Assembly (NCBI GenBank): GCA_010093995.1
Contig: ML992513.1
Location: 186,001-228,773, forward strand
DNA: 42,773 bases
Source: Elsinoe ampelina
Lineage: Eukaryota
Direction of reading: 5' to 3'
In this document: in pieces, positions 1 to 40,060 of the stretch
How the letters are laid out: the number at the start of each line of letters is the position of its first letter
Numbering within the stretch: the stretch's first letter is position 1
Notes under the pieces: model-generated
Seen by the model: only the letters and a program-made list of their open reading frames with translations
Told to the model about the DNA's origin: nothing
Database searches by the model: none
Translations under genes and position numbers: made by a program

Positions 1-778
1 CAAACCCAATCGCTACATGGATGCGAAGGGCCAAACGACAGACGGCGTCGCGCTCGCCACAACAATGATGGAGCGACTCCGCGTCGACATCGATTCTCCC
101 CCAACACGCACCAACACCATCACCCAAGCAGACTATGACACACAGTCCTGGTCTCGCGCCTTCCCCAATACCCAACCCGAAACTCCCATCAACGACGCCG
201 CTTTCGACTGGGAGCCCACCACCACATCCGCGGCCCACTCTGCCTCCCAGCCCACGACAGAAATGGACCTCACCTCCGCAGCCGCCGTGACCGATGCGGC
301 AGCCCACCTCCTTGAGACCGACATATCTCTCTCCCAGTTCACAAACACACAAGGCCTCCCTCTCACTTTTACGCAGGTGGCGAAGCGCTTCGGTGATATC
401 GCCCCCCGCGAAGCACTGACAAGATTCTATTCCACCGTCCCGCAGGTCCAGCTACAAGACACGCTGCAATCCATCTTCCTCGAACTCGGGATGGTAGCTA
501 CGCAACGCCGCAAGCAGGACAAGCAGGCCCAGGAGGTGGAGGCCAGGATATGTCTCTACGTTCAAGGCGTGGATAGCAGGAAGCAGGAATTGAAAGGCCA
601 TGTTTTGATTGAAGCGGCGATGGGGAGGGGAAGTGGGTTGAGTGAGGTGAGGTTTGTCAAGGCAAAGGGCGATCCGGTCGAGTGGAGGAGAATGTTCAAG
701 GGAGTGGTGAGGAGGGGGAAGGACGTGGTGTTTGTGCCTAGGGAGGCGGTGGGAAGGGTCGGGTGGAGTCAGGTCTAG
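1..778 (+). CDS. CHK1: Checkpoint kinase Chk1, C-terminal part (KA1-like domain); gene starts upstream of the window
   Basis: The ORF has the Chk1 C-terminal signatures 'LTRFYS', 'DSRKQELKGHVLIE' and 'VRFVKAKGDPVEWRRMFKGV'. No kinase domain lies within the window. Confidence 0.8.
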   Translation, partial: KPNRYMDAKGQTTDGVALATTMMERLRVDIDSPPTRTNTITQADYDTQSWSRAFPNTQPETPINDAAFDWEPTTTSAAHSASQPTTEMDLTSAAAVTDAAAHLLETDISLSQFTNTQGLPLTFTQVAKRFGDIAPREALTRFYSTVPQVQLQDTLQSIFLELGMVATQRRKQDKQAQEVEARICLYVQGVDSRKQELKGHVLIEAAMGRGSGLSEVRFVKAKGDPVEWRRMFKGVVRRGKDVVFVPREAVGRVGWSQV

Positions 779-1511
779 GAGGGCTAGGGAGGACGTTCGT
801 TGGAGGATGCGAACGATATCTCGAAAAGGGAATAAAGCTTAGGCAACTGTCCTAGGCGCCTGTCATGTGGGATTGGCCCTGGCACTTACGACACGAGTCG
901 GGTCCAAATCCACCTGGTATGGCAGTGGCAATTGGAACGAGTTGAGGACAGGCGCCAGATACGTCTCAGCGAGCCCTGAGAGGAGCAGAAGGGGTCCTAT
1001 ACGAGACATGTTGGGGGAGCCAACGATCTAAGAAAGAGACATCGAGAGCCCACCCTCCATAGGCTATGGCCTCCTTTGTGGCAGGAATTGCATGAGCTGA
1101 GACACTGGATGAGTGAGAGTACATGCAATGGCACTGTCAGGCAGCAAGCAATGTACGATCAATCGTCTGACCCTGCCTCACCCTCTGTAGCGATATAAAT
1201 GATGAATGCTCTCTTTGCAAGAGAGACACGACGCTATATGTACAACCTGCGCCGTGGACAAGTGATCTGACCACACGCAGGCAGCACAAGAATACATTAA
1301 AGCAACACCAAACAGCCAGGCACGAACCATCACACATGGACAATTATTGGTAACAATCGAATCGCTATTCATCCAGGATATCTCATCGCTCGCTCGCTTG
1401 CAAAGAAAAACTCATACAGCTAATAATACATTACACCTTCTTCCCTCTCTCGAGAGCGAGACCGATCCCTCAGCTCCCTTGCCACCCCCCCTTCCACATT
1501 TCTTCGCAAGT

Positions 1512-1919
1512 CTAGTACCTCGCCCCCCTGCCATCAGTACCATGCATCCTCCTCGTCCCCGCGGCCTTGAGCCCGGGGCGCCTAGTCAACGACCCCCTGA
1601 GCTTCATGAGGCCACCGCTGACTTTGTCGCCGATGCTCGGACGACGCTTGTGGTGGTGCGCCGGGGTGGCGGTGGTGGTGCCGTGGGTGCGGTGGGAGCG
1701 ACGGCTGGTCTTGGCCGCGCGGGGGGCCGAGGCGGTGTGGTGGCCGTTGGTGGTGTGGGTTGTGGTGGTGGTGTGGGAGCCGGTGATGGGGTTGTGGGAG
1801 CGCTTGGTGGTGTGGGTTGTGTGGGCTTTGTTGCCGCGGAGGCGTTGCATGAGGGAGGGTTTGGAGTGGGTTGTGCGGGTGGTGGAGGTGGGGGCGGCGG
1901 TGCGGCGGGAGCGGAACAT
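1512..1919 (-). CDS. Small basic His/Thr/Arg-rich fungal protein of unknown function (135 aa)
   Basis: ATG at 1919 follows a C/A-rich leader, codons are strongly C-ending, and TAG is at 1512-1514. The C-terminus 'RRPSIGDKVSGGLMKLRGSLTRRPGLKAAGTRRMHGTDGRG' resembles conserved ascomycete hypothetical proteins (from memory). Confidence 0.8.
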   Translation of the reverse strand: MFRSRRTAAPTSTTRTTHSKPSLMQRLRGNKAHTTHTTKRSHNPITGSHTTTTTHTTNGHHTASAPRAAKTSRRSHRTHGTTTATPAHHHKRRPSIGDKVSGGLMKLRGSLTRRPGLKAAGTRRMHGTDGRGARY

Positions 1920-2598
1920 TGTGGTGGTTTTTGGTGGTGGGTGAGATTGGGTTGGGTTGGTATGACTTGTGGTTTGGGGAGTGGGCTTTGTCTGGTTTGA
2001 TAGAGAAGGAGCAGGGGGGTGGAGAGAGGTGTACTTATGTGTTTTGCTCGTGAGATACGCCTGGCTACACCACGATGACGACGGCGTACGCGAGAGCATC
2101 ACGCAAAGCCGGTTAGAGATAGGGGAGAATTCTCCGTATCGTCATACCAACGTGAGAAACTTGCTTGGGGACGGTTCGAGGAGTGGTGAATGTATGGCTG
2201 ATGGTGTTTAAGGACTCCCAGACCGACGTCATTTTGAGAGGGATCGACATGGCACGCGGGCTGAAAAGCTGCAGGTCAAGACGAGATTGTGGCATGGAAA
2301 CTGGGAACCTGGGCAGAAACAGGCGCTGATCTCTTCGAGACTGAGGGCCTGTGGCTTGTGTGATGCACCCTTTCGATGCGTTTGGCATGTTCTAGGGATC
2401 GAGGTGTGGCTTGACGTGATGCTGATGGAGCGAACGTGTTCAGACCCTGTTTTTCTTTGGGCAAGAACCCTGTGGCTTTCCCAAATGTTGTGTTTCCTGC
2501 TAGCGATGCAGGTACGGTGGGACTGAAGCGAAGGATTAGTTGATGCTCAGAGCAGCATGTTTGTGGCTGAGGAGATGAGTGTAATAAATTATGAAGAG

Positions 2599-2721
2599 AT
2601 GAGTCCTGATGCGGTCATTGGCAAGGAACCTTAATAAGATGTGGTCGGCGCGGAGCTGTCGCCGATGCCGGCCATTCAAGGGTCCCCTGCACCTTTGACT
2701 TCACAGAAAATTGTATGAGTC
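2599..2721. promoter_or_regulatory. Two ATGAGTC (Gcn4/CpcA-like) sites upstream of chorismate synthase
   Basis: ATGAGTC at 2599-2605 and 2715-2721 are imperfect matches to ATGASTCAT. Yeast ARO2 is under general amino-acid control. Confidence 0.3.
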
Positions 2722-2861
2722 GGTGCACGAATAGTTCATCCTGAATCGATCTTCGCAGCTCCTCGTTCCTTTGCCAAAGACTAAATCACCCGTGTCTCGA
2801 GTCTTGTAAAGGTGCTTCGACGAGCCAGGCTTCCTCACATTCCCTGCTTCGACTCGCTACC

Positions 2862-4186: not shown

Positions 4187-4740
4187 ATGAGGCGTCGGAA
4201 ATGGACATTTGGAACATTCACGAGCTTCTTCGATTTCAAGCGAGTGTATGAATTGGAGTGGACCGTGATCTAGTGTGGCGAAGAGCTCGTGCTTGTGGTG
4301 TGCGTTTGCTGTGTCTGAAGGAAGGAAGGGGTACATTCCTCAAGCAACGCCTGGCCGAGATGACCACATCCATTACCTTGACCTGACGTCTTGAACAACC
4401 TCATTCCAATTGCAGTAACAAATATCATCCATTCAAACCCAACATCGCTAGCTTACGAAACATTACAAGAAGATCTTTCTCGACCCCTCTTCGAGGCGGC
4501 CATGCAACACGTTCAAGGAGAGTGGTGGAATCAAAACATCCCTTTCCTCCACATCGACACCCCCAATGGGACCCATGACGACGAGCCAAAAGAGACACAG
4601 CGCCGCCCATATGCAGTGGTATATCCCTCTATAATCCAGTTCAGTCTCGACAGAGCGTACATGCGATCTCTGCGCATTCCTCTTCTCCCCTGCCCTTCCT
4701 GCCTCCTCCCGCCTGGCCTCCCTCATATAGATCCAGCCTC

Positions 4741-5664
4741 TCAAAAATTCGACGCCGCGTTCGGACTCCTCCCCCCCCAACTGGACGCCACCGGACTCGT
4801 CACGTTCCCACCGGAACTCTTGTACCGATCCAACGGCTCGGCGAACTTGTTCGTCAAACTACTCGGACCCCACCCGCTCTTCTTCTCCTTGCCGATACTG
4901 TCACTGCTCCCGGTGCTCATCGCTCCCCCGAAGTAGTCCTCCTCCTGCGGGACTTTCTGGTGCCGCTTCTTGCCCCACATCTTGTACACCACGAAGGCGA
5001 TGCCGGCGAGGAGGAACGCGCCGCCGATGCCGCCCACGATGCCGCCGATGAGTTTCTTGCTCTCGGCCGAGAGGGTGTTGGTTTCGTTGCCGTAGCCGGA
5101 TGCGAGGCCGGGTTTGGAGGTGGAGGACGAGGTGGAGGGGCGTGTGCTGGTGGAGATGGAGGAGATGAGGCGCCCGTCGCTGGTGTAGGTTATTGTGGTG
5201 AGGATTTGGTCGAGGGGGGCGAGGTTGGTGGAGGTGATGGTCACGTCGGAGGGAGCGGCGGAGATGGTGTTGGAGGGGGTGTCGGTGATGGTGGAGGAGG
5301 GCGGGATGGAGGAGGTTGAGGGAGGGGCGGCGGCGGTTGTAGGTGTTGATGAGGATGGTGGGGCGGCGGAGGATGAAGGGGGTGCTGCGGTTGTTGATGA
5401 AGGTGGTGCTGCTGTGGTTGTCGGAGAAGGTGCGGCGGACGTGGTCGGTTGGGGTGTGGGAGAGGCAGATGTTGGAGGCGCGACGGTCGTGGAGGGTGGT
5501 GTTGTGGGTTGCGCGCTCGTCGAGGGTGATACCGCTTCACTGCTGCTGACGCCGGAGACGACTGTTGTGTCCTGTCGAGGGTGTAAGAAGCCTGCTGGCA
5601 GGTCGACTGCGAATGCGAAGGCGATGAATGCCAGGAGCACAGCGAGGTGCAGATGCCGGAGCAT
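4741..5664 (-). CDS. Mid2/Wsc-like single-pass Ser/Thr-rich cell-surface protein (307 aa)
   Basis: Signal peptide MLRHLHLAVLLAFIAFAFA, then a long S/T/P/A-rich ectodomain, a TM helix IGGIVGGIGGAFLLAGIAFVVY, basic KKR residues and a short cytoplasmic tail. Confidence 0.85.
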   Translation of the reverse strand: MLRHLHLAVLLAFIAFAFAVDLPAGFLHPRQDTTVVSGVSSSEAVSPSTSAQPTTPPSTTVAPPTSASPTPQPTTSAAPSPTTTAAPPSSTTAAPPSSSAAPPSSSTPTTAAAPPSTSSIPPSSTITDTPSNTISAAPSDVTITSTNLAPLDQILTTITYTSDGRLISSISTSTRPSTSSSTSKPGLASGYGNETNTLSAESKKLIGGIVGGIGGAFLLAGIAFVVYKMWGKKRHQKVPQEEDYFGGAMSTGSSDSIGKEKKSGWGPSSLTNKFAEPLDRYKSSGGNVTSPVASSWGGRSPNAASNF

Positions 5665-6674
5665 CTTGGCTGATGGGTGGGGTCCTCCTGTGTTGTCGGG
5701 TTTTGTTGTTTGTCCTTCCTTTTGGTCGTCGACGATTGACCGTCCGGCGATGAGATCAGTAACGACTGACTGGCGATGGGAGTGTTGAGCGAGTGTGGAT
5801 GATGAGGTAAGAGTGAAGACGTGAAGGTTCTCGCAGCGTAAGCGTCTGAGCGTTCGCTGCCTTTGGTTTGCGTCTTTGGACCCGTCGGACTCGTATTTTC
5901 TCTCACTAAAAGTGCACACTAAACGTCTAGAGTTTGGATCGAAACGGAACTAAGCCCGGCGCGTGCTAGAGGCCACCGCTGCCACAACGACCAAATATGC
6001 TGCCATCACGCGTTTCGGTCAGGGATCATGAGGGAAAAATGCGCAGTCTGTCATAAGGTCATTGAGGAATGGTCAGCATCAATTCAAGCCGATGAGCACC
6101 AAACACGACCTGGAAAGGCTGTATCGTGACCATTTCTGCATGTGCACCACGCCGCACACCAACCTGCGCCAAATTTCAATTATCGATTGGCTGAAGAAAC
6201 GTATGTTGCTTATCTCCACGACTAATCTATATTGATGGAGCAACTTCAAGCCACATGTGTCCCTGTATAAATGAGTGTTGCAACTGTCGAGCCGCGTCGG
6301 TAGGTAGAATTGATCCGGTAGAATTGCGTGTCGCTGTCGCTGGCTGCACGTGATCTGCTCGCCTCCATTGACCGAGCAATATCATAAATTGTAGATAATA
6401 GCATTGCGCTCAATTGACATTTCGAGCCCTCAAGGGTCCTCAAAAACCATCGCCCTGGTCGTTTCATCCCACATGTCAAATTGTTGAAAATCCAATGACT
6501 TAGAAGCTGCCATCAACTCACATTCCACCCCTCCTCACCATCTCACCACCTCCCATCTCCGCCACCTCTCCCACAAAACACTACATCACCCATGAACCCA
6601 TCCCTCCCGCCTCACGAATCCTCTCCTCCAACGCCCACCTGAAACCTGATGTCCCATATCGGAAAAGAAAGAGA

Positions 6675-7588
6675 ATGCACTCCCTAACCCTCTACGCCCC
6701 CCTCCCCTCCGCCCGCCACGCCCAAGCCCTGCACATCCTCACCGGCCTCTCCGCCGCCCAACCCACCGAGACCTTCTCCCGCGTCGCTATTTTCGCGCCC
6801 GTTCGCGCGGCGGTGGACACGAATCTCATCGCGAAGAAGAAGAATAACGCCGCGCAACAGCCGGGGCAGTTGACGCTTGTCCAGCTCGTGGAGGGATTGA
6901 GTCGGGAGGGGTTTGGGGGACGGGATGAGAGTTTGAGTGATGGCGCAGGTGGTCAGGCGAATGGGGCCGAGGCCGGGACTGAGACCGGGGAAAGGGATGG
7001 AGAGAAGGGACAGAAGCGGGATGGTGATGACGACGTGGCTATGGAGGGGTCGGCTGGTGTAGCGCCAAGGAGACTGGCTGGGAAGGAAGAGGGGAGGTGG
7101 ATGGCGAGGACGCAGGAGATTCCGGAGCCGGAGACGAAGAATGTGGTATTACGAAGGGTGACGGAGGAGAGGATCACGGGGGAGGATGTCAAGGGGTATA
7201 TGGAGGGGGGGAAGTATAGGTTTGTTTTCATGCTTGGGAGTGGGTGAGACTGGCTGACAGATGCAGGTTCGTGAATGAGTACTTCACCGAAGGTCATCGT
7301 TTTGTTTACAGAGATGTTGTGCTGCATCTTCACCGCGTGTTGGTGACGAAGACATCGTCTCCGGGAGAAGGGATGAGCATGACACAGCCTGCGCTGGAGG
7401 ATCTGGGTCTGCTGGATGCGAGTGGGGCTTTTGTGCTGGAGGCTACGGTTAGGGTGGAGGATAGGAGTAAGCCGGCACTGGTGCAGGGCGCAATGGAGCA
7501 GTTGCTTGCTTTGAGGAATGAGTTGAAGGGCGCGATAGAGCTGAGGGTGCCGGAGAGATTGAGCATGGATACTAGAGTGAGGAATTGA
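6675..7588 (+). CDS. MED18: Mediator subunit 18 (Srb5); exons 6675-7219, 7267-7588
   Basis: N-terminus MHSLTLYAPLPSARHAQALHILTGLSAAQP. Intron 7220-7266 (GTTTGT...CTGAC...CAG) joins to YRFVNEYFTEGHRFVY. C-terminus ends ELRVPERLSMDTRV. Confidence 0.88.
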
Positions 7589-7725
7589 ACAGTCGGCATG
7601 GGATAATAACGACATGCATTTAAGAAGTACTATGCTAATGGATGATGCAAGTGCCGTGATGCTGCCATCGCTATGTAGGACTGCCGTCAATACGGTAGCA
7701 TGCATGATGTAGCAGAAGCCATCAA

Positions 7726-10990: not shown

Positions 10991-11896
10991 TCCATCTTCC
11001 GTACATACTCGACCGCGAAGAAAGACGCAAGCTTCTTCTGGTGCTACACAGACCTAGAAGTCTGTCGGTCATAACGCAAGATCAAGATCCTTCAGTGTTC
11101 TTTTCCGAGAACACATCAATCCGAGATGCTTCGAACCGCCCGAGGCGCTCGATGCGGCGGTTTGGCAATGAAAATTACCTGCTTCTACCGCAAGACGCTA
11201 TCGGAGGAATTAATGCGTTCAACATGTCTCGTCGAATGACAAGCAAGTCTACAGGGGAGTGCAGCCTGGCTTGCCAATAGGGCAGAGAAGATGCAGCTTG
11301 CGTAACATCGATGAATTGATACATCTGTCAATCTGTTGCTGCTGATATGGAGATCATGAATCTTGAAAATTTTCGGGTCCCATGTGAATCAATGGTTAGT
11401 ACAACCAATAGTCATAGTGAGTTCGCAACAAGTGTACAATCCGCTCCATATCCCTAACCGTGCGCCCGCACTACCTCGCACCGCAAACAGCTTCGGCAAT
11501 ACAGACGTGTCAGCATTCCTTACCAAGCATTGCAAGGCTGCATCTACGGACCCCTGCATCTGTAAGGCGTGACAAGATCCTCACATCCGGTCACTGAACT
11601 ACTACCAGCAGGCCTTACGTTCCTGGGAACCGGTCCAGCCTTACGAAGCACAGTGCACGCCCATACTGAGCTGCTCTCATGAAACAGTAGCAGCATGGAT
11701 GGAGGCCTCTTCACCCGTCTACCAGACTATGCATCTTGCAAGTGTGCCGTTCCATTCTGTGACAGCCACATAGACGTGCCAATCCGATGACCGAAATCTA
11801 CAAAGAAATCTCGTCTGCTCCAACTTTCCATATCCACTCACCCAGACGAAGCACTTGCATCTAAGCCAATCCAAGCCCACCTCCACGAAAACCAGC

Positions 11897-12287
11897 ATGC
11901 ACCTCCCCTCACCCCTCCCCCTCTTCTCCCTCCTCATCCTCCTACTCCACCCTCTCCTCACCACCTCCTTCCCCCTCAACCCCAAAAAGCCCACCGTCAA
12001 CACCCCTCCAATCCAGCCTCGGCACCGCCCACCCCAATCTCCCCATCTCCGTCGCCCAACAAACCCCCGGCAAAGCCCCCATCGATACCACCAAGCTCCA
12101 ACCCAATTCCGGTCCGATAGATTACTCCAAAGACATCGGCCCCAGCCAGGTGCAGCCGTACAAGGGTGCGCCGATGCAGGATGTGCCCAAAGGACCGGTG
12201 ATTCCGCCGCCGATGCCGGGGCAGGAGGGGTTGCATCCCGCCTTCAGGACTAAAGCGGAGGCGGCGCCGGGGGAGTACTATCCGTGA
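11897..12287 (+). pseudogene. Small secreted Pro-rich protein with an apparent 1-nt insertion at the C-run 12003-12006 (pseudogene or sequencing error)
   Basis: Signal peptide MHLPSPLPLFSLLILLLHPLLTTS. Removing one C gives a 129-aa frame (...VNTLQSSLGTAHPNLPISVAQQTPGKAPIDTTKLQPNSGPIDYSKD...EAAPGEYYP*) that keeps C/G-ending codons. The uncorrected frame stops at 12253. Confidence 0.55.
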
Positions 12288-12371
12288 GGTGAAGAGGGGG
12301 ACGGTGTCAGGGTAGGGCTGGTGAACTGGCGTACGTAGACTGATCTGCTCTGAGGGACAAGGAGGAACGGA

Positions 12372-14697: not shown

Positions 14698-16713
14698 CTA
14701 CACAAACACCATCTCGGCCGCTGCTCTATGCTGCTTACTCTTTGCCAGAATCAACACCATAGACTTATTCAGCTCCGGCACACGCTTCTCCTCAGGCTTG
14801 ACCTGCTTCCAGTCTACATCCATCGTCTCCTCCATCTCGACAGTCCACTGCCCATCTGCAACCTTGACGCCCTTGACCTCGCTGCCATCGACAAACACCC
14901 TGACACTGACCACGTCGTCTCCTGAGACTGTACCGTCCAGGTAAATTTTCTTCTTGTCTGCGATCATCTCCGCTTTGGCATCCGTCACTTTCAAGGTCGG
15001 CACTGGGCCTTCCAGCTTTCCTTGCTTCTCATCCACAGCCACTGCATCTGTCGTCAACTCTGGCGTCCTCTTTGGAGCTGATCTGAGACTGGTCCCCTTC
15101 TCGAACGCATAGGCGTATCTGAAAAGCTGATTGTCCTCGTATGACTTCCCAGCAAAGGTAAGGTTCACAGGCATTCCGATGTCAGCCATGATGCCCATAG
15201 GTACACTGACAGTTGGTATGCCGAGCTGTCGGATAGCACAATTCCCGTTCGAGTACAGCGTTCCATTACGCCATGCCTCGGCAGCTGAGTCTTCGTTAGT
15301 GTCAGCATCAGCCTTTCCGACGTCCGCATTACACGGCCAAACGACGGCGTCCAGACCAAGACTGTCAATCCAGTCCTCGTAGTCGCTCTTGCGCTTAGTC
15401 TCCAGGTTCTGTAGCGCAGTTGACAAGCCTGGTATCTCGTAGATAGGTACGCGACCACCGGACACATGCGCAACCACTTCGTTGTGCCGGACTAGCGGGT
15501 CCATGCTGTCGTAGCGGTCGAGGAGAGCACCTGGTGGTCGCGGGAAGATACTACCAGAGTCGATCTGAGCAAGCGAGGTAGCAACATTGGCGTCCTTGGT
15601 GCCGGCCAGGAAGTCGTCCCAAGCATACGCCATTAGCTTGCCCATGTCGACCTCATTCCGATGCGGCGGCGCAGCGCTCTCATCCTGGCCCTCAACCGCG
15701 TCGAATTTGTTCACGACCGGGAAGTCTACCTCTTCGACAGCAGCACCCAGCGACTCGAGCGCCACCTTCGCCTTCTTCCACAGCTCAATGACGGATGGTC
15801 GAGTGTAGACCTTCCGCGACTTTGGGTCCGAGTCCTGACCGCCAATGTACATCTTGGGCACACCGATCTTCTTGCCCGCCAAAGCACCTGCGTCAGCCAG
15901 ATCCGAATACGACTTTGGCCGAACCCTGTCAACCGACGGAAGCTTGACAAAAGGCTGACCCCTCCAAAAGTCTCCTTCCTTAATCTCATCCTCAACCACA
16001 ATAACATCCAGCAGCGCAAACATATCCTCCACCGTCCTCGTATGCGGCACCACCACATCACACGTCGGAAACAGCGGCCAGTTCCCTCTGATCGAAATAA
16101 CCCCCCTGGACGGCGTATACGCCACCAACCCATTATTCGACGCCGGACTCCTCCCACTCGAAATCGTCTCCTCCCCCATGCCAAAAACGCCCATACTCGC
16201 CGCCGTGGCCGTCGCACTCCCATTCGAACTCCCACTAGCAAACGCAGCCGTCAACCACTCCGCATTGTACGGACTCTCGGCCCTACCATACACACCCCTC
16301 TGCATCCCCCCGGCCGCCATGGGGGGCATATTCGTCCTCCCCAGGATCACGGCCCCGGCTTCCTTGATGCGCGCCACGGTGAAGGCGTCCTCGTCCGCCA
16401 CCAGGTCTTGGAACGCAGGACTCCCCGCCGCGCACGTCATGCCGGCGATTTTGTACGAGTCTTTGATCGTGCAGGGGATGCCGTCGAGTGGGCCGAGGGG
16501 GTGGCCGGAGGCGCGGCGGGCGTCGGATGCCGCGGCGGCGGAGAGCGCGGTGGGGTTGAGGATCGGGATGGCGTTGAGGAGGGGCCCGCGGCGGTCGTAT
16601 TTGGCGATGCGGAGGAGGGAGGATACGGTGAGTTCGGTGGAGGTGGTGTGCCCTGCTGCGAGGGCGGTGGAGAGATCGGAGATGGTGGCTTCGACGATGG
16701 AGAGGGGGGCCAT
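14698..16713 (-). CDS. Amidase-signature family enzyme (671 aa, intronless)
   Basis: GPLDGIPCTIKDSY (catalytic Lys), GSSNGS and ETISSGRSPAS form the Ser-cisSer-Lys triad region. There is a C-terminal extension of roughly 110 aa. Confidence 0.93.
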   Translation of the reverse strand: MAPLSIVEATISDLSTALAAGHTTSTELTVSSLLRIAKYDRRGPLLNAIPILNPTALSAAAASDARRASGHPLGPLDGIPCTIKDSYKIAGMTCAAGSPAFQDLVADEDAFTVARIKEAGAVILGRTNMPPMAAGGMQRGVYGRAESPYNAEWLTAAFASGSSNGSATATAASMGVFGMGEETISSGRSPASNNGLVAYTPSRGVISIRGNWPLFPTCDVVVPHTRTVEDMFALLDVIVVEDEIKEGDFWRGQPFVKLPSVDRVRPKSYSDLADAGALAGKKIGVPKMYIGGQDSDPKSRKVYTRPSVIELWKKAKVALESLGAAVEEVDFPVVNKFDAVEGQDESAAPPHRNEVDMGKLMAYAWDDFLAGTKDANVATSLAQIDSGSIFPRPPGALLDRYDSMDPLVRHNEVVAHVSGGRVPIYEIPGLSTALQNLETKRKSDYEDWIDSLGLDAVVWPCNADVGKADADTNEDSAAEAWRNGTLYSNGNCAIRQLGIPTVSVPMGIMADIGMPVNLTFAGKSYEDNQLFRYAYAFEKGTSLRSAPKRTPELTTDAVAVDEKQGKLEGPVPTLKVTDAKAEMIADKKKIYLDGTVSGDDVVSVRVFVDGSEVKGVKVADGQWTVEMEETMDVDWKQVKPEEKRVPELNKSMVLILAKSKQHRAAAEMVFV

Positions 16714-16927
16714 GGTGGCGGTTGGGGAGCTGCTGGGGGGGTGGTGGTGGTTGGACTTGCTTGGTGGGAAGGAGGTGGGAGATGGTGAATGAGACCTAAC
16801 TTACTCCTCGTCTTGGGTAAGGGGTTGGGGCTTTCATATACGTCGCAGTCATACCAGTTGGGAAGGGCAATCGTCTTGAGCCCGAGGGGGCGGGTATTTA
16901 CCAGTTGTATCTGTCCCATGGGGTCGG

Positions 16928-17001: not shown

Positions 17002-17188
17002 GAATTGGACGCGGCATCGATATGCAGTGTATCACCGCTCGCAGCAGTCTCGATCGTGGAACACAATCAAGGGCTCTTGGGCTTGGTAATCGGTCTATAT
17101 AGTCCTGCCGATGGACTCGTCTTCACCACTCCTCATCTCTTCAACCACACCCTTCTAATTACTACCACTGCATACAACTACAGCAGCC

Positions 17189-18844
17189 ATGGCCGACCAC
17201 AACCCCGACTTCATCCCCGGCACCGTCCACCTCGTCGACGTCTCCACCCAGCACACCTCCGGCCCCCACTCCACCTCACACTCCGACATCGTCCTCGTCC
17301 CCCAACCATCCTCCGACCCCGAAGACCCCCTGAACTGGACCTACCGCCGCAAGCTCCTCGCCGTGTCCATGTCCTACCTCTACGTCCTGGGCACCGGCAT
17401 CGCCACGTCCCTGCAATACTCCGTCCTCGCCGACATCACCGCCGACACGGGCATCTCGACCGCAGACCTCGTGCAAGGCACCGGCGTCATGTTCCTCTTC
17501 TTCGGGTGGTGCTGTTTGATCTGGCAGCCCATCGCGCTGACGTACGGTCGACGGGGCGTGTACCTCATCACCATGTTCTTGACGATCCCGATTATGGTCT
17601 GGACGGCTTACTCGCGGAGCTTGGGGGATTGGTACGGCCATCGGGTGTTGATTGGGATCGTGGTCAGTCCGATTGAGAGTTTGAGCGAGGTTACGTGCTT
17701 TGACCTGTTCTTCGCGCATAACAGGGGCACGTATATGGGGTTGTATGTGTTTGTGCTGTTTGGGTCGAATTTCTTGGCGCCGCTTGTGGCGGGTTGGTTT
17801 AATGATGCGTATGGCTGGAGGTGGACGATGCATTTGGGGACTATCATCTGCGCGGTGTGTCTGGTAGTTATGTTCTTCTTTCTTGAGGAGACGATCTACT
17901 TCCGCAACACGGCGCTCGAAGGACAGGATGTCAAGAGTGAGGGATCTGTGGGGAGTCAGGTGGAGGGGAAGGCTGGTGTGGTCGCCAAGGATGATGAGTG
18001 GGCGAACGTCCAAACCTTGCCTAAGGAGCAGAGCGTTTCGTCGACCTCAACTACCACGCGACCGAAAAAGACACTCTGGGAGAAGTACGCCCTGTTCCGA
18101 CCTCTTCCAGGCCGACCCAGCAATCGCGACATGCTGAAGATGGGCTACCGACCGCTACTGATGATCTTCAAGTTCCCCAACGTAGCATGGGCTGGCTTTC
18201 TGTATGGTATCAACCTGTCGTGGTACAATGTGCTCAACGGGACGGCGAGTCCGGTCCTGACAGGTGCGCCGTACAACTGGTCTGCCGCACAAGTCGGGTC
18301 CGTGTATGCTGGTCCCATCATCGGCGCAGGCCTGGCGTGTCTCTGGTCTGGCAAAGCAGCGGACTGGCTCGCTCTTCGTCTCGCTCGTCGCAACAAGGGT
18401 ATCCGCGAGGCTGAGCACCGTCTGTGGGTATTGACAGTATCGGGAATCATCTCTGCCGCCGGATTGATTCTCTGGGGCGTTGGCGCATACCGGCAAATTG
18501 AATGGATCGGTCTTGTCTTTGGTCTGGGTATGCTGACCTTTGGCTGCGTCACGGGCGGATCGATCGCTGTGAGTTACAATGTCGACTGCTTCAAGGAGAT
18601 TGCTGGCGAGACGATGGTGTCCATCATGATCATTCGAAACACGATCGGATTTGGCATCAGCTATGGTATCACTCCTTGGTGGACCAACCAAGGGCTGCAG
18701 AACTGCTTCATCACCGCTGCAGCTATCTCATTGGTCTGCACATTCTCTTTCCTGGTCCTGGTAGTTTATGGTAAGAGGCTGAGGAAGTGGTCACTACCGG
18801 CGTACAGCAAGTACATGTCGACCGCAATTGTTGCGCTAGAGTAG
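17189..18844 (+). CDS. MFS transporter, DHA1/Hol1-like (551 aa, intronless)
   Basis: LVPQPSSDPEDPLNW, YGRRGVY, DLFFAHNRG, GWRW, FFFLEET and REAEHRLW motifs, with about 12 hydrophobic segments. Confidence 0.93.
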   Translation: MADHNPDFIPGTVHLVDVSTQHTSGPHSTSHSDIVLVPQPSSDPEDPLNWTYRRKLLAVSMSYLYVLGTGIATSLQYSVLADITADTGISTADLVQGTGVMFLFFGWCCLIWQPIALTYGRRGVYLITMFLTIPIMVWTAYSRSLGDWYGHRVLIGIVVSPIESLSEVTCFDLFFAHNRGTYMGLYVFVLFGSNFLAPLVAGWFNDAYGWRWTMHLGTIICAVCLVVMFFFLEETIYFRNTALEGQDVKSEGSVGSQVEGKAGVVAKDDEWANVQTLPKEQSVSSTSTTTRPKKTLWEKYALFRPLPGRPSNRDMLKMGYRPLLMIFKFPNVAWAGFLYGINLSWYNVLNGTASPVLTGAPYNWSAAQVGSVYAGPIIGAGLACLWSGKAADWLALRLARRNKGIREAEHRLWVLTVSGIISAAGLILWGVGAYRQIEWIGLVFGLGMLTFGCVTGGSIAVSYNVDCFKEIAGETMVSIMIIRNTIGFGISYGITPWWTNQGLQNCFITAAAISLVCTFSFLVLVVYGKRLRKWSLPAYSKYMSTAIVALE

Positions 18845-22489: not shown

Positions 22490-22666
22490 CACGGTGTCAG
22501 GGGATCTGTGTAGCGTGTATAGATGCAAAAGCGAGCGTTGACTATCCGGATGATGCTGTGCATGCAGTGTCACACATAGGTTCATCAAAAATCGAGCAAA
22601 GTGACCATCACGTAAGGCATGGAGGAGATCACGACGGGCCAGGTAAACGATGATATACAAGGGTAT

Positions 22667-24916
22667 CTATCCACACGTCTGCGCCCCACCCTCATCTACC
22701 ACTGTCAGCATCACCCTCAACACTTTGTCACAATACACTCACTCCTAATCACCTTCGCCACCGCCAAAAGCACACTAATCCCCAACACCGTCGTCCCAAA
22801 CGCTATGCAAACAAACGCCGCATACTGCACCCGTCAGCAAATCCCCTCGCCTCATCCCCTCTCCTTCTCCAAAGTACTCACAGTCTCCCACGTCCGTCTC
22901 TTCGTCAACTTGACATAACACATGGGCGGCAGGATATACGCCAACGCACACGCGCTCGTCGCGCCCACCAACTCGAAAACAACCCCCAAGTCGCACGTGA
23001 ACAGCGAGAGGACCATGGCGCTGACCACGAGGGCGGTGCTGAAGACGAGGTGTCGATTGGGGTCGAAGGGTTCGTGGGGGAAGTAGTACAGCGTCATGAC
23101 TTCGCGGCAGACGAAAGCTTCGAGGGGGAGGGTGGTGAGCATGTTGAGGCCGAAGCAGCTGGTGGACAAGGTCAGCAGAGGGGTTCGAAGAGGGATGGGG
23201 GGGAAAGGGGGGCAGGTACAGTCTGGCTATGTTGACCATGATGTTTTGGGTGGGGAAGTTGTTGAGGATGTTGCCCTTTGTGGCGCTGCCGAAGTTGAGG
23301 TAGCCGGAGAGGGCCATGGCGAGGCAGGCTATGCAGGAGATGCTGGTGGACATGTGCGTGACTTTGGCGAAGCGGTCCATGGTTGGTTTGTGGAGGGAGC
23401 CGTAGATGAGGAGGCTGTTGTGGTCTGTGGATGTTAGGATAGGGCGGACCGGATGGGGTGGCATGACTGACGGCAAACAAATGCAAATGAAATGACCCCA
23501 ATCGCCTGGAAAATGCCGCTGTGAATCAAAATGCTCCCTTTTATCGGTCCCTTCATTTCTGCGGGTACACCTGGTCCCTGCGTGATTACCGTGATGATGA
23601 TGACCAGCATGCTGATGAGTGCGAGAGTACTGGCTTTTGCAAGCTGGTCGACGTCAGTTTAACTTTGCGGACCCTTTGCGGTCGATCATACCTTTGCAAT
23701 ATCTCTATATAATGAAAGAGGGTAGCTGATACCCAAGGTGAAAAGAACAATGATCGCTCGTCTGTCCATGAGCAGCCAAAGAAAATGGGTATCTTGAAGC
23801 TTTGGAAACAGTGCCGCAAACACATGAGGTATCGTGTCCCCTATGATGATACAGAATGCCACCATACCGCCGAAAGCACTACGAACGATTAGCTGGCTTC
23901 TGGAGGTTTCCGAACAGAACGTACAAAGCCCATTGCGCAACACTGATGGCTATCAGCCCACTCTTACCAAAGCAGTGCTGTACAGTCGCTTGAAAGGAAT
24001 TTGCGCCGCTCAATTTCGAATTTGTTACGATCAACCTGATCGTCCAGTCCACCGTGATGGTCAGACAAATCAGGAGAATCACACCGGTGACCAGACCTGC
24101 TTGTCGTAATGCGTACGGTTGTCCGATGATACCAGCGCCACTATAGCCAGTCAGCGATGGATCCTTGCATCTCTTCTCTCTTGCTAGTATGTCTGAGCCG
24201 TCCACCTTGTATTCAAGTCCTTGTCTGATGTGACCTTCATATGGTCCATGAAATGTGCCCGCGTTCTCAATCCATCCTCCCATGTTCAGAGGTACTCACA
24301 TGATCGAATTCGCCATGTTCATAAACGCGCTTTTAATCCCGCTCTTCGCCCTTCCTCCCCGCATCAGGTCCTCCAGCTCCAACTCCTCACTGGCGACCGT
24401 CACACTGGGCGCTTCTATCCCAGTGAGGAGTGGCGCTCTTGATGCCCTGTCTCCGCGACCTCTCCGACCCCTGCCAGCCCCATGTCCCTCGGCCAGATAG
24501 TCTTCCTCGTCCAACTCCAGCCAATCGTCGGAAGTCCTCGGCGATGCATGTCTCAGTCCTCCATTCGGCTGCCCGCTGTCTGCCGAGCTGCGAGGCGCAT
24601 CAGACGAAGATGGTCGTGGAGTAGCAGGGGATATGGCCTGGTTCTCCTCCGCAAAGTGTACGCGGTTACTGGTGCGGCGGGCGCCATCAGGGCGGAGCTG
24701 AGCAAAGGCAGAGTGTCGTCTGGTCGGCGGAGTGCGGGATAGATCAGGAGAAGATCGAGAGGAGCTCTGATTCGAATGGTGTGCTACCGGCCATGAGGGT
24801 TTGACATCGGCCGATGGAGATGCCGACATGGGACTGTCAGAAGTAGGGGAGTCGAAGAGCTCGGCTTCTGCTTCGGCGGAGGGGCCATTGATGGGCGAAT
24901 TGATGGAGCCGTTCAT
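22667..24916 (-). CDS. AVT2: Vacuolar amino-acid transporter (Aa_trans, Avt2/SLC38A11-like), 8 exons
   Basis: Introns 24141-24299, 23879-23924, 23644-23691, 23425-23471, 23159-23219, 22825-22881 and 22696-22742 give one continuous frame. It contains AFMNMANSIIGAGIIGQPYA, FAFVCHHNSLLIYGSL and NMLTTLPLEAFVCREV, and ends RNEGGAQTCG*. Confidence 0.88.
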
Positions 24917-26799
24917 GGAATGGGCCTAATGCGTCTTCGGAACATGTGCTGCATTGGTGGCTACAGATTCTGTGTTGTGATCGTGAAGATGGTTGACACG
25001 GGTGGTGGTGGAACTTTTTGTGGAGCTTCAACTTGGGAGGACGCGAGGCAGGGCAAAAGTCAGGGAACAGCTTTGAGCCTGATGACCCTGACATTGAGCC
25101 ACAGACAAAGGCTGTCCGACTTCAGGCATTTGGCTTCATTCATCGACAAGCTTCTCAGCTCCGAAAGTGTCAAGTAGCCTGATATTGACACGAAGCCTAC
25201 ATCTGTGGGTGTAAATCTCCCAATGGAAGCCGAACGCCTGCTCCGGTCGACGCGACGACAGACTGATTCTTAGCAAGACACTAAGAGGAGCTCGTTCCAT
25301 TCATCGTGTGATCGAATTGCGACTCACTTGCCTACAACAAAGGAAACATCGAGCCAACTCCGCATGAGCATCAAGGGCATGACCAAGATCGCATCAAACA
25401 AAGGTCCTTGATCCAGGACACTCGCATCACGGAGTTGACACCGCGGCATCCTCTACAGTCACAGTAATGGCTCGATCTGTCCATATTGCATCATCTGTAG
25501 GTCCTCGCACGGCACGTGAGCACGCTCAGCTACGATATGGGTAGATCGGTCTGCTGCGAGAGACCCAAGCCATCTCGCCGAAGATTGGCTATCAGAGGAC
25601 CCGTCGCCTCGGAGCCTAAGCATCGTCAGGTATGACGATTTCGGAAACGTGACCTCGCGGTCGACGAGAAATTGTGTCGAAGATCACTCTTGGAAGTCTG
25701 GAAGCAAGCATGGGGTTATCACTATACCACACGGAATACTCAAACATCATGATGGTGTGGCATGTTCTCATGACCAGTACTACGCGGCAACGTCAAGGGA
25801 TATGCATATGTGAACCCTTACCTCTCATACATCAGCCCGTTGGAAACAGACGACCGTTGATTTGCCTCGCGAGATCGCTCAACGACAAGGTGCAGAATCA
25901 CTTTCGAATCACCCTGACTATTCTTCTTGCCACCAATCCAGACATGCTCGGAATCCCCACGCCAGCAAAGTGTTTCATATGCTGTAGGCACGGTATACTA
26001 TCAAGACTAAGATCAAAGTCTGTCTGCTCGGAAATAGGTTCAACGTCCGGACCTTTCATTCCATACTACCAGCATCTTGGCCCACTGACTGGCGACCATG
26101 TCAAGCCAGGACTCCTTGCCGCTAATCGAGTGTCGAGACATTTCGCTCGGGAATCTGCCTTCCTGTTGATCAAAGAAACTGTCAAAGGGCTAGATATTCT
26201 GGAGTGAACGCAACCGTCGCTGTCTTGGACCCCTCACTTTCACACGGGACCTGCCACTTCTCGCACTTACACCTCAACGTCCAAGGATCAAGGATGTCAT
26301 TCGATAACCCAGGTCCGTCTTACGCCCGACGTTGACGTGTTTCGCAATCTTTACTTCCGACAACTCAGGCCTCGTCATTTGAGCCGCTTGTGTGTTGGCA
26401 ACGGTTCTAGAGACGTCAAGATGTGGTTGGTCGACAACGTTGCTGGAGACGACCGTTGGCACCAACCTCGCCCTCAGAGACTGACCGTTTATTCCAACCT
26501 CTTCGCCACTCACCATGCTAGGTGATATTATAGTACATATTCGCCATGAAGATCAACGTTGGTCTAGAGACCTCAAGACCAGATATCTCCAAGACATTCT
26601 TGAGAATCAGTGACTTTGTCCTTCGAGGCTAAGTACTAGTTTGCCACGTATATGCAGTACTTATAGCTCTCATTTCTTCCTCTTGACCACATTCGTTTAG
26701 CATCAAGCAGATTCAGAATTCTTTGACAGGACTGCAATAAACTCTTCAATACTTTCATATCATTTACCCCCACATACTACATTTATCACATCCGAAGCC

Positions 26800-27868: not shown

Positions 27869-29380
27869 TCAGAGTCTCGCTGGTAACATGCTCTCGATCC
27901 ACGATCCAAGCTCAGATCTATGATCATGCTGAAGTCCCTTCCCGCTCGCTTCTTCCCACATGCTGAGCATCCGACCCCAGTCTTGGATCTCATGAATCTT
28001 GTGCTTCGATGATTCGTCTTTTAGATCCAGGGCGAAACCTTCGGCGTCCTCGCGATGCTTGATGTGTAAGTTCTCCACGCAACCTCCTTTGGCCTCCATG
28101 GTAAGAAGAGGTAGTCTGGTATTGGCTGACCGAACAGACTCGTTGCTGATTTTGAATCTCGGGGTCTGACAATACGTCCAATCGAGTGACTAAATCTGTT
28201 AGCATCTTACACCCACCTCTCGCCTTCATGACTTTACCTTCAACTCCTCCCACCCCTTCCTCAGCCCTTGATCCTCAAGCCACTCCTCCCCAACCTCCTT
28301 CGTCTCCACCTGACCATACAGCTTGCCGAATTCCCCGCCTACCTCCCTCATAAACTGCTTATTCCCAATCCCTACGTTCGCCACCGGGCTGCTCACACTC
28401 TCCACCCCCTTACTCTCGATCAACCCCTTCCCCGGCGCAGTCAGTACCTCCTTGATCCTCCCCAAATTCCCACTCCCCAGCAACGCAGTCCCATGATGCA
28501 ATGCCCTCCCCCTGGTAAGCTTATACGCACTCCCACCAACCTTCCTCGTCTCCCCACCCATCCAAGGCGTAGAATGCGTGTCGTCTCGCTCCCTCCATCG
28601 CCGTTCCTCCACCCCTTGCTTTCCCCGTTGATCCTCTCCACTCATCCATCCAGTCTTCCGCTCGCCAAGATCAACCACAATATCATGCCTCTCATTCACC
28701 CTCGCCCTCTCGACGCCCACCCTCCTCAACGCCCTCACCACCATCTCAGCATGCTTGTCCCTCGTGAATTTCGCAGAAGGGGAAATGACAGTCCAATTCA
28801 CGTTCCCGAAATCATGAAACACCGTTCCCCCTCCCGAACGTCTCCGTACGAGATCTAAACCGATCCTTTCCCCTCTGCCAACCCCTTCCTCACTCCCCCC
28901 TTCTTGGCCCCCTCCCCCCTCCCCTCCCCCACACTCCCTGTCAGGGCCCCTCGCCCTCTCCCTCTCCCCCTCCCTCTCCCTGCCTCTACCCCTCCCATCC
29001 CCATCCCCGTCCCCGATCGCCCCCTCCGCTCTAAAGTCCTTGAGTAAAGCCAAATTCACCTCCGTCCAAGGATTCTGGTTCCGCCCCACGACGACGCAAG
29101 GGCGGTTGACGTACAGAAACAAGACCGCGCTCTCGGGCGCTGTTTTCTGTAACAAGTGGTGCTCGATGGAAAGGTTCAGGTAGGGGTCTGAGGAGCGGGA
29201 GATGTAGGATTGGACTGGCCTGTCGAGTAGGGAGTGGGAGAGGGGGGCGAAGCAGAGGGGGGGGGAGGAGGCGGGAGAGAAGCGGGAGTGGGAAGTTCTG
29301 TACCGCTTTATCTGATGGGAGAGGGAGAAGACTGGGGGGAGAGAGGGTAGGCGGCGGGCGGGTGGAGTTAGTATGAGCAT
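27869..29380 (-). CDS. AIM22: Mitochondrial lipoate-protein ligase A-like (Aim22/Lip3); exons 29380-28238, 28189-27869
   Basis: DPYLNLSIEH, VVVGRNQNPW, LVRRRSGGGTVFHDFGNVN, KVGGSAYK, HHGTAL and KGVESVSSPV motifs. Intron 28190-28237 joins WEELK|SLDWTYCQTPRF. The N-terminus is an Arg/Ser-rich presequence. Confidence 0.88.
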
Positions 29381-29794
29381 GGGATGTCGTTGTCGGAGGG
29401 AGATTGGTGGCGGAAGGAGAGGAATTGTCCAGTGGTCTTGGCGTTGTCGACGAGATGACCGTGTATGGTTTTACGGCGTGATTTAAAACGTGATGGATGA
29501 AGAGGATGCCTAAGTGAGGATGCAAAGGGGTCAAGATACACGCTCATAAAAGGATGGTCCAAATTATGCAATTCAAAACGATACGCTATATAAGTTCGCC
29601 GCAAAAAGCACACGGTCTCTGAATCTATGCACTTGAAAGTGTGGTATCATGCCAGACGTCCGACGAAGACGCCAGAAAAGACTTTTTCTCTTTCCTCCCC
29701 CGACTGCTACTCAGGTGGTTGTGGTATACGACATGGTAGAGGGAGAGTTGACGATGGGCGCCCCATTGATGGATGGAAGTCCTCCGGCTCTCTC

Positions 29795-33305: not shown

Positions 33306-33362
33306 GTGGTTGAAGGACGTGTTTGCGAGCAGCAAGGATACAACCAATCAGGCCGGCGCATA

Positions 33363-36051: not shown

Positions 36052-36093
36052 GTGGCCAGTTCTAGGGGATGGCCAGATCCCCGGGGCAGACGT
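36052..36093 (-). repeat. Right terminal inverted repeat (42 bp)
   Basis: gtggccagttctaggggatggccagatccccggggcagacgt, followed by TA. Confidence 0.98.
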
Positions 36094-38679: not shown

Positions 38680-38809
38680 TGAAAAGCACATTATATTCAT
38701 TAGCCATCTACAGCGTATCTCCCTCCCTTCTCACACTCTTCCCATCCCCTTTATCCCTCCCACTCCACCCCCCTCCTCCCTCTCTTTCTCCACATCTGCT
38801 CTCCCCCTC

Positions 38810-40060
38810 TCAATACTTCGGAAACGGCGGATCCGCCAAATCAATCCCCTTCAAATCCCACCTCACCCGACTAACCCCCCCCTGGCCCATCATCCACAAC
38901 TCGGTCAAATCCCCACCCACCCAGACGAAATTCTGCACCGTGTAATTCGTCTGCACCCGCGCGATATAACCCCCGTACTGATCCAAAACATCCAGCCCCC
39001 TGCCGGCGGCGGTGACGACGTACCCGTTGGCCGCGACTTTCAGCCCGTCCGGCGCCCCCTCCGTGGCGTAGAAAATCGGGCGACGGTTGACCAGGCTGCG
39101 TCCGTGGTCCGAGACGTCGAATTTGTACACCGTGCGGGGCCCGGTTTGGTTCCATGGCGATCCGGGGATGTCGAGAGCCGGGTCGATGACGCCGGTTATC
39201 CCGCCTGTGTCGGAGATGTAGATGTGTTTCCCGTCCGGGCTCAGGGCGATGCCGTTGGGTTGGACGAGGGTGTCGTCCACGACGGTGGTTTCGCCGGTGG
39301 AGGGGTTGAAGCGGTAGCTGGCGGTGCGGAGTTGGGGGGGCGTGTCGGTTATCCGGTTGAACCAACTGTATTGGGGATCGGTGAACCAGATGTTGCCGGC
39401 GCCGTCGACGATGAGGTCATCGACGCAGTTGAAGTAGAGGCCGTAGTAGTTGTTGAGGAGGACGGTGGTTTTGTTGGTTAAGGGGTCCAGGGTGCGGATG
39501 CCGATGCGTTGTTCCGTCCCGCCGATGGAGGCGTTGCTGCCGGAGGAGCCCCAGTAGATGAGTCCGTTGTAGAAGGTGCCGCCGTTGGGGGCGTAGACGG
39601 GGGGGTCGGAGAGGTATTCGCTGAGGGTCGGGGGGTCTTGGTTCAGGTCGATGACGAGTTGGGGGAGGAAGCCGGGGGGTGGAGCGAGGCGGCTGAAGTA
39701 GAGCTTGTTCTGGGCTGGGACGTATACAGGAGCTTCGTGGACGGCGTTGGTGAGGGGGAAGATGAAGTCATATTGAGGGTTGGGTCCGAGGAGCTCGAGG
39801 CCGCGTTTGCGGTCGAAGACACGGAAGTCGGTGTCGTTGAGGACGGCGAAGGAGGGATCATTGGGCACGTCTGTCTCGGCGAACGAGGTCAGCCTCTCGG
39901 TTGTGCTGTCGTTGCGGAAGAAGGTGTAAGGCATGACTGCTGCGTAGCGGTTGATACATGCTACGTTAGCAGGGCCACATTGTTCGACGAGTGGTCGTAC
40001 TGTGCCCTCTTGGGCTGCCACTAGGGACGCTAATAGCGGGAGAAGGAGTGTTCGTGCCAT
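38810..40060 (-). CDS. Secreted SMP-30/gluconolactonase-family beta-propeller enzyme (intronless)
   Basis: Signal peptide MARTLLLPLLASLVAA; motifs VHEAPVY, APNGG, FNCVDDL, IWFTDP, QPNGIALSPDG and PDGLKV. Confidence 0.9.
   Translation of the reverse strand: MARTLLLPLLASLVAAQEGTVRPLVEQCGPANVACINRYAAVMPYTFFRNDSTTERLTSFAETDVPNDPSFAVLNDTDFRVFDRKRGLELLGPNPQYDFIFPLTNAVHEAPVYVPAQNKLYFSRLAPPPGFLPQLVIDLNQDPPTLSEYLSDPPVYAPNGGTFYNGLIYWGSSGSNASIGGTEQRIGIRTLDPLTNKTTVLLNNYYGLYFNCVDDLIVDGAGNIWFTDPQYSWFNRITDTPPQLRTASYRFNPSTGETTVVDDTLVQPNGIALSPDGKHIYISDTGGITGVIDPALDIPGSPWNQTGPRTVYKFDVSDHGRSLVNRRPIFYATEGAPDGLKVAANGYVVTAAGRGLDVLDQYGGYIARVQTNYTVQNFVWVGGDLTELWMMGQGGVSRVRWDLKGIDLADPPFPKY

Follow-up and report, generated by a model that had tools for sequence, protein, structure and literature searches.

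What does it mean when the forward strand of a fungal chromosome turns, again and again, from several hundred bases of C-rich sequence to several hundred bases of G-rich sequence? The question is raised by a stretch of 42,773 nucleotides from the grape-anthracnose fungus Elsinoe ampelina (assembly GCA_010093995.1, contig ML992513.1, positions 186,001 to 228,773; hereafter the window, with coordinates counted from its first base). We find that these C-to-G switches are real, occur genome-wide and are tied to genes, and that the orientation of the neighboring gene is the decisive variable for the blocks that surround them. We propose, with a probability of about 0.4, that over a long time a substitution bias with strand polarity, centered ~280 bp inside the 3' end of head-on genes, has left the blocks behind, and that the cause is biased gene conversion or mismatch repair in recombination heteroduplex at convergent, cohesin-type sites.

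The sample consisted of the window and 80 spread 10-kb stretches, 842,773 bp in total or ~3% of a genome of 161 contigs and 28.3 Mb. Switches were scored by a step, defined as G minus C in the 300 bp to the right minus the same quantity in the 300 bp to the left; the maximum over 50 mononucleotide shuffles of the window was 78, and calling at a step of at least 110 gave 113 blocks across the sample. Twelve of the 13 switch points listed by a first-pass annotation of the window have steps of 109–223. The remaining one, at 27580, is within chance (best position 27425, step 67), and a switch at 24585 (step 115) had been missed. The C-then-G polarity was borne out for genes on both strands, and the reverse switch is not equally frequent: in 60 of the spread stretches the ratio of C-to-G over G-to-C switches is 68:45 at a step of at least 120, 42:14 at 150 and 25:6 at 180. 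In a hidden Markov model of half of an initial set of sequences, a strong-G state almost never led straight to a strong-C state (0.01 transitions versus 3.7 expected). Most G-to-C switches are places where one block gives way to the next (62 of 85 lie in intergenic DNA, 45 of 85 in convergent gaps). The spacing of about 3 kb noted earlier is a property of the window only; genome-wide there is one switch per 7–8 kb (60 stretches).

Genes were predicted with a self-trained, iterated gene finder, without public annotation. Of 81 exons compared with Pfam (77, mostly the longer, of the 109 largest from block-bearing genes, plus 4 extra from the window), 58 matched a family in the predicted frame and strand, as did 23 of 32 partner-gene exons (32 of a set of 35, the other three having matched in the first check). 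The gene finder also recovered, to within a few bases, six of the seven introns shown by contigs from X3 and X5, which both skip introns and are presumed to be RNA. Stops are more reliable than starts in these models, and at least one window model (27869–29380) is over-extended. Counts of convergent and tandem ends omit those without a neighbor in the stretch or less than 950 bp from its edge.

The blocks are bounded units with arms of median length 433 and 441 bp. The switch itself is not a point, best-fit 10–90% widths being mostly 20–260 bp (73 of 80 fits); at held-out third positions the skew runs from -0.73 at 200–350 bp on the left to +0.70 at 200 bp on the right and crosses zero over ~100–250 bp. 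Held-out sites show a plateau near ±0.7 at 150–400 bp that has faded by ~600 bp, and introns and intergenic DNA 800–1200 bp from the centers are unskewed (C/G of 0.25/0.25, 0.27/0.24, 0.22/0.26 and 0.26/0.25). On the + strand, four-fold degenerate sites of the left arm are 0.72 C in genes on + and 0.68 C in genes on -, and those of the right arm are 0.69 and 0.70 G, versus backgrounds for genes on +/- of 0.33/0.21 (C) and 0.22/0.32 (G). Introns follow suit (C 0.47/G 0.12 on the left, C 0.15/G 0.39 on the right), with 44 of 47 short introns concordant in skew sign, and a weak A-left/T-right component accompanies the polarity.

GC content at third positions peaks at 0.81 in blocks versus 0.64, and that at four-fold sites (GC4) reaches 0.80 in 25 genes whose bodies have only 0.53; the bias is equal across all eight four-fold codon families and all four 3' neighbors, with no CpG effect. 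Because four-fold sites, introns, codon families, neighbors and GC4 agree, the bias is one of DNA: strand-symmetric, context-free and GC-raising. Synonymous codon shuffling within genes removes most calls (113 to 37–41 at a step of at least 110; 69 to 6–12 at 150), and with four-fold sites, introns and untranslated regions (UTRs) all skewed, the earlier contention that neither amino acids nor the direction of the host gene explains the switches holds. Proteins are rewritten along with the DNA, Gly (x2.2), Glu (x1.65) and Trp (x1.7) being enriched in G arms and Pro and Thr (x1.5) in C arms. No convincing motif marks the centers (the top 6-mer has z 3.7 among thousands; CpG observed/expected ~1.0), and a search of the genome with positions 1–5000 of the window, which hold three blocks and part of a fourth, found only the self-match, simple repeats being skipped.

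The complementary composition of the arms had suggested long fold-back structures. Duplexes formed by a block's own arms are slightly stabler than locally shuffled ones (-197 versus -193 kcal/mol, p 0.002), but own arms pair no better than swapped arms (-197 versus -201, p 0.46; longest exact complement 9.4 versus 9.4 nt; 60 blocks), and introns, which are spliced out, are equally skewed. A selected RNA or DNA fold-back, with the C arm pairing to the G arm, is hardly credible on these figures.

Placement within genes is specific. Centers fall in coding exons in 110 of 113 cases, coding exons making up 64% of non-AT-rich DNA; of the 110 centers assigned to models with 300 or more coding nt, 86 are no further than 600 bp from a stop codon, 15 are near the start only, and 9 are near neither or at a cut end. 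In genes of at least 1.5 kb, 40 of 50 centers lie within 600 bp of the stop versus 13.6 expected, and the median distance to it is 282 bp. Distance from a gene end thus largely predicts position, which comes close to one of the outcomes that the first-pass annotation had named as refuting its reading. That annotation was right that the polarity is the same for genes on both strands, but a coding strand that is C-rich 5' and G-rich 3' is its own reverse complement in this respect, so the observation does not separate the pattern from genes.

The stronger dependence is on the neighbor. Where both genes have at least 600 coding nt, blocks occur at 56 of 114 convergent 3' ends (49%) versus 2 of 60 tandem ends (3%; p 6e-11); with genes of at least 300 coding nt the counts are 63 of 142 and 9 of 80, and without the window 58 of 130 and 12 of 80. 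The difference is not explained by the length of the gap, and about half of convergent ends carry no block. In a metagene not selected for blocks, four-fold skew toward convergent stops moves from ~-0.25 in the gene body to -0.60 at 600–750 bp out and then to +0.45 in the last 150 bp (68 genes), with GC4 rising from 0.55 to 0.72, whereas toward tandem stops it reaches only -0.36 and then +0.18 with GC4 flat (32 genes). Blocks at 5' ends, found at 4 of 68 divergent and 6 of 50 tandem ones, show no preference of orientation. Of 84 tandem ends in the 80 loci plus the window, 12 do carry a block, several of them with a gap above 900 bp; unannotated convergent genes or antisense RNAs may lie there.

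These results also bear on replication, the first-pass annotation having noted that a C-to-G inversion is the signature of bidirectional origins in bacteria. A bacterial-type origin is unsupported, the skew being about zero within 600–800 bp in introns and intergenic DNA, and a classical origin sawtooth was rejected on a profile that is flat beyond ~600 bp. In a narrower version, MCM helicases, which are displaced by transcription, would be pushed to convergent gene ends and fire there, with an asymmetry that lasts only for the first few hundred bases while forks are being established. This would suit a point-centered pattern with both arms coupled, the bacterial polarity and the weak A-left/T-right component, but it is quite improbable given the lack of a sawtooth, the density of one site per 7–8 kb and the location of centers in GC-rich coding DNA.

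The two arms of a block belong to one gene. The C arm varies with the G arm of its own gene (rho -0.62, n = 108) but hardly with that of the partner (-0.15), although the latter has a small partial effect (coefficient -0.22 ± 0.08); the two G arms of a convergent pair are independent; and the distance from center to stop shows no significant relation to gene length (rho -0.21, p 0.13). The coupling of the C arm to its own gene is awkward for a mutational explanation, in which sense and read-through antisense polymerases (or cohesin-stalled complexes) pause head-on in vegetative cells and expose each strand in its own zone. C-inserting (Rev1-type) damage bypass would then make the exposed strand G-rich, that is, the coding strand in the last ~300 bp and the template strand further upstream. 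The substitutions favored on the G-rich strand (A>G, C>T, C>G and T>G) are indeed classes of single-stranded damage and translesion synthesis in the relevant sections of PMC7615360. Convergent orientation would be required, the small partner effect is accommodated, and an RNA contig spanning ARO2 (the chorismate synthase gene of the window) and its partner suggests overlapping convergent transcripts, although a two-gene contig is no proof of overlap. However, the C arm follows its own G arm, the center is anchored to its own stop, there is no sequence-context dependence, transitions alone give C 0.42 and A 0.35 versus the observed 0.70 and 0.125, and a GC4 of 0.80 by mutation would need a strong GC-ward mutation bias, which is unusual. 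Taken together, we consider head-on mutagenesis unlikely, if still a serious competitor.

Related candidates were rejected: transition-only deamination, on its prediction for C; partner read-through as the anchor, on the coupling to the own G arm and a slope on the gap far from -1; and mutagenesis of resected DNA at a break centered on the switch. The last predicts a polarity opposite to the one observed, because the forward strand, single-stranded to the left of a resected break, gains C>G and A>G there (according to the relevant part of PMC7615360), which gives G then C.

Base frequencies constrain the process further. An additive per-base preference leaves residuals of 0.2–0.34 ln units, because A is favored over G at two-fold sites (log odds ratio of the A/G ratio 1.21) but hardly at four-fold sites (0.08), a difference that such a preference does not give, and it was rejected. 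The contrast leans toward pairwise mutation or repair biases, although codon selection may differ between the two site classes. The same non-additivity counts against selection on DNA or nascent RNA to control polymerase at crowded gene ends, by which G-rich pause or R-loop tracts on both strands would aid termination and limit read-through; an adaptive idea for gene-end skew appears in the main text of McLean & Tirosh (PMC3315797). Convergent specificity suits this reading. A polymerase would run into one G-rich tract ahead of its own poly(A) site and, on read-through, another in the partner's C arm; a canonical G-quadruplex pattern is present on one strand in 66 of 113 blocks, a count without a composition-matched control. 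On the other hand, there is no standout centre motif, strong non-synonymous change would be costly, half of convergent ends do without a block, and the C arm is not tied to the partner. We regard selection of this kind as improbable.

The reading that we favor, strand-polar biased conversion, retains the first-pass annotation's idea of a recombination or repair process but relocates it to convergent 3' ends, and under it the blocks may be a lasting scar of strand-biased DNA repair. Heteroduplex would form repeatedly about one point in a convergent 3' end; the observed bias is confined to ~±500 bp around such a point. Repair is assumed to start from nicks on opposite strands at the two heteroduplex ends and so to excise the opposite strand on each side. 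G:G would be mended to C on the excised strand, with the reciprocal C:C escaping, and if G:T is mended better than A:C, as we assume, the excised strand would also gain T>C and G>A. The excised strand would gain C and lose G on each side, which would leave the top strand C-rich to the left and G-rich to the right of the center, under a drive strong enough to alter amino acids.

Several lines of evidence are consistent with this proposal. A free pairwise fit to the C-rich strand gives T>C 1.8, G>A 1.2 and G>C 1.3–1.8, the three directions that the repair model predicts. Decay of transposon sequence of the repeat-induced point mutation (RIP) type, a process linked to the sexual cycle, points to past sexual cycles (TpA/ApT 2.0). 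Repair of C/C mismatches is three- to five-fold less efficient than that of others in the pertinent sections of PMC3218862. In Saccharomyces cerevisiae, axis proteins and cohesin bind at 3' ends when the genes are convergent but not when they are tandem, forming one peak or two unequal ones and showing no motif, by the account in Sun et al. 2015 (PMC4530585). Similarly, the relevant portions of Powell et al. 2026 (bioRxiv 10.64898/2026.03.13.711646) describe Top3 activity on crossover intermediates that moves with transcription and stalls in convergent 3' ends but stays at the promoter of an uninduced gene, and crossovers that are enriched at convergent sites after prolonged prophase or under strong convergent transcription.

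Other results weigh against strand-polar conversion. Axis peaks in yeast lie ~150 bp past the partner's transcript end (in the sections of PMC4530585 on peak position), unlike the anchoring to the own stop seen here, where the slope of center position on the gap is -0.17 to -0.23 rather than -1 (UTR lengths are not in the models). The G:T/A:C class of single-nucleotide polymorphisms is simply the best repaired in the same sections of PMC3218862, so the order of efficiency assumed above does not come from there, and the passages on conversion in PMC5844332 report little GC-biased conversion in intergenic windows of Zymoseptoria, though many exon hotspots. The presence of a block in the two genes of a pair is not significantly correlated (odds ratio 1.5, p 0.49), and codon-bias proxies of expression fail to predict which gene of a pair bears it (61 genes, 11 pairs). 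A five-parameter mismatch model fits only with absurd values (up to -69), and in the free fit a large A:T>C:G component, equal on both strands (2–5), is required as well, which the repair model does not supply. Finally, the C-then-G polarity rests on the assumed nick geometry.

Known phenomena share parts of the pattern. GC-biased gene conversion at hotspots likewise produces a local GC peak of ~1 kb that overrides codon and amino-acid preference; unlike the blocks, it ordinarily treats both strands alike and leaves no skew, and hotspots in fungi and plants usually lie at promoters or terminators rather than inside coding ends. With the cohesin/axis and crossover-resolution sites of yeast the blocks share a location inside convergent, not tandem, 3' ends, two possible and often unequal sites per pair, and the lack of a motif. 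The yeast sites are known from protein and crossover maps, with no compositional footprint reported in the relevant sections of PMC4530585 and bioRxiv 10.64898/2026.03.13.711646. The position of yeast axis peaks also depends on where the partner's transcript ends, and the peaks favor the weaker gene; neither relation could be shown for the Elsinoe blocks. The elements named GRINS, as portrayed in the main descriptions of PMC8256042, are ~1-kb coding segments of intense skew of both signs, strongest at third positions, associated with gene conversion and enriched for Gly/Val/Trp or Pro/Thr/His, their mechanism being unexplained there. They are repeats among paralogous modules, mainly bacterial, with a correlated TA skew; the Elsinoe blocks, to judge from those in positions 1–5000 of the window, appear to be unique sequence, and they involve mainly G/C, keep one polarity and are anchored to gene ends.

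The closest precedent answers the question of novelty that the first-pass annotation had left open, for a weaker, averaged form was described in 2011: fungal genes have opposite GC skews at their 5' and 3' ends, of unexplained cause (McLean & Tirosh 2011, PMC3315797, main text). Both patterns have a coding strand that is C-rich and then G-rich, with G skew strongest near the stop codon, a minor AT skew, and effects on four-fold sites, UTRs and amino acids. The 2011 average is recovered here, with skew of -0.22 to -0.28 just before the ATG and the positive values already given for the last 150 bp before convergent and tandem stops. In the main text of PMC3315797 that skew emerges from averages, changes gradually over the whole gene and correlates negatively with GC content, whereas the Elsinoe block is a bounded unit of fixed size, ~1 kb, at one gene end, where skew attains ±0.7 and GC4 as much as 0.80. 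In long genes its C arm lies within the 3' part, and its occurrence depends almost exclusively on convergent orientation. A gradual rise along the gene is not seen, for long convergent genes are most C-rich (-0.60) at 600–750 bp before the stop, beyond a body of ~-0.25. The words "convergent", "recombination" and "gene conversion" have no occurrence in that main text, supplement aside, and the bounded 1-kb unit, the GC rise and the convergent dependence are absent from it; by this comparison the blocks are an extreme variant of the McLean–Tirosh skew. A literature search, with subscription journals and supplements mostly outside its scope, found no report of the pattern for Elsinoe or of convergent dependence.

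The blocks of the window are listed in Table 1.

Table 1. Skew blocks of the window, with approximate switch centers and associated genes (positions from the first base of the window; strand in parentheses).
Block	Center	Anchor and associated gene	Neighbor or other feature
77..809	~488–513	291 bp before stop of gene ending 778 (+)	convergent with gene 1512–1919 (-)
1303..2655	~1632–1652	spans small gene 1512–1919 (-) and its 5' flank	X5 contig 1363–1973
3400..4331	~3907	280 bp before stop of chorismate synthase ARO2 (+, ends 4186; intron 2896–2944)	
4364..5827	~4993–5065	252 bp before stop of Ser/Thr-rich membrane-protein gene (-, 4741–5664)	convergent with ARO2
6438..7602	~6801	spans MED18 (+, 6675–7588; intron 7217–7265)	
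11706..12370	~12111–12148	small gene ending 12287 (+)	convergent with ALG10 (-, 12372–14414)
15959..16793	~16444	5'-anchored; amidase gene (-, ORF 14698–16713)	
17116..18002	~17504	5'-anchored; 315 bp after ATG of MFS transporter (+, 17189–18844)	divergent from amidase
21600..22650 (edges approximate)	~22205	~285 bp before stop of NIF-family phosphatase gene (+, 20894–22489)	weaker, step 109, just below calling threshold; convergent with transporter gene at 22667
22667..23461	~22997	330 bp before stop of amino-acid-transporter-like gene (-, 22667–24916; AVT2 in the first-pass annotation)	
24258..25065	~24585	5'-anchored; same amino-acid-transporter-like gene (-, 22667–24916)	
28203..29530	~29090–29127	spans lipoate-protein ligase gene (-, 28226–29380)	strongest of window, step 223
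38704..40118	~39063	253 bp before stop of SMP-30/gluconolactonase gene (-, ends 38810)	

The gene ending at 778, within the span of an X3 contig (1–1183), was labeled CHK1-like by the first-pass annotation and has no Pfam match in its exon. The 5' part of ARO2 is unskewed, and its exon at 3002–4183 is 100% identical to the chorismate synthase of Elsinoe ampelina. MED18 has a convergent partner without a block, a sugar transporter gene (-, 7726–9532), and the SMP-30/gluconolactonase gene is convergent with a serine carboxypeptidase gene (+, ends 38679).

In long genes, 5'-anchored blocks were seen at the three window centers so marked and, in the sampled stretches, at L019:6840, L023:2041, L039:8077, L050:3067 and L058:3289. 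All labeled hosts are transporter, catabolic or secreted-enzyme genes (amidase, two MFS, the amino-acid transporter of the first-pass annotation, OPT, AtuA, GH5 and acid phosphatase); hosts of 3'-anchored blocks include many housekeeping genes. Crossover-resolution junctions of yeast stay promoter-proximal at silent genes in the relevant portions of bioRxiv 10.64898/2026.03.13.711646, and the 5'-anchored set, which is small and subjective, fits a picture of silent genes keeping the event near the promoter.

Open reading frames (ORFs) of 185–375 aa lie opposite real genes within blocks at 3287–4336 (-), 15661–16788 (+), 17276–17833 (-) and 38480–39481 (+); these shadow ORFs probably arise from the skew and can mislead gene prediction. 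Among the differences listed between run X5 and the window (40 strain differences listed of ~1000), 20 of the 26 along a contig spanning window positions 2944–5798 fall in 369 bp (3976–4344), and none between 2984 and 3975. The cluster starts beside the ARO2 switch and covers its G arm, with 15 of the 20 in the 3' UTR; the contig may be chimeric. Among the listed differences, similar clusters lie at 1426–1889 and 106–687 and none at 6518–7595. The C-terminus of ARO2 (4125–4186) is rich in Glu, Arg, Lys, Gly and Ala in five Myriangiales proteins and in Gln, Thr and Asn in those of Dothideales and Zymoseptoria, which hints from sequence comparison that the ARO2 G arm may be old within the order Myriangiales. 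The window also holds an AT-rich DNA transposon relic (33358–36098) with 47-nt terminal inverted repeats that are 98% complementary and stay GC-rich; it carries a RIP-type signature (TpA/ApT 2.02, (CpA+TpG)/(ApC+GpT) 0.20), as does a second stretch from near 40450 (1.94, 0.16), and neither stretch has a block.

Beyond Elsinoe, the pattern is probably wider but weaker in other fungi. Of 80 metagenome loci, 31 (436 kb) were picked for length and to avoid duplicates, and these yielded 30 switches of step at least 105. Of the metagenome switches within ~620 bp of a stop with a known neighbor, 9 are convergent and 3 tandem, a weak indication from Elsinoe-trained models and without a denominator. 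Conservation of position in orthologues, suggested as a check by the first-pass annotation, is not seen in ARO2 relatives from metagenomes, in which the switch varies in position and is often absent.

The 5'-C/3'-G skew of fungal genes has been unexplained since 2011. The Elsinoe version is an extreme one, and the arrangement of the genes divides it cleanly (49% of convergent and 3% of tandem ends). What had been a vague trend linked to transcription thereby becomes a question about specific positions, which population genomes can answer directly. If conversion is the cause, the blocks would be the work of a strand-polar drive of a new type, marking crossover sites and shaping the ends of proteins non-adaptively; conversion at crossover sites would explain the gene-end skew of fungi and make such sites readable from a single genome. 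Even if the bias is mutational, it would distort work on codon usage, on the ratio of non-synonymous to synonymous substitution (dN/dS) and, through long shadow ORFs, on gene prediction in such fungi.

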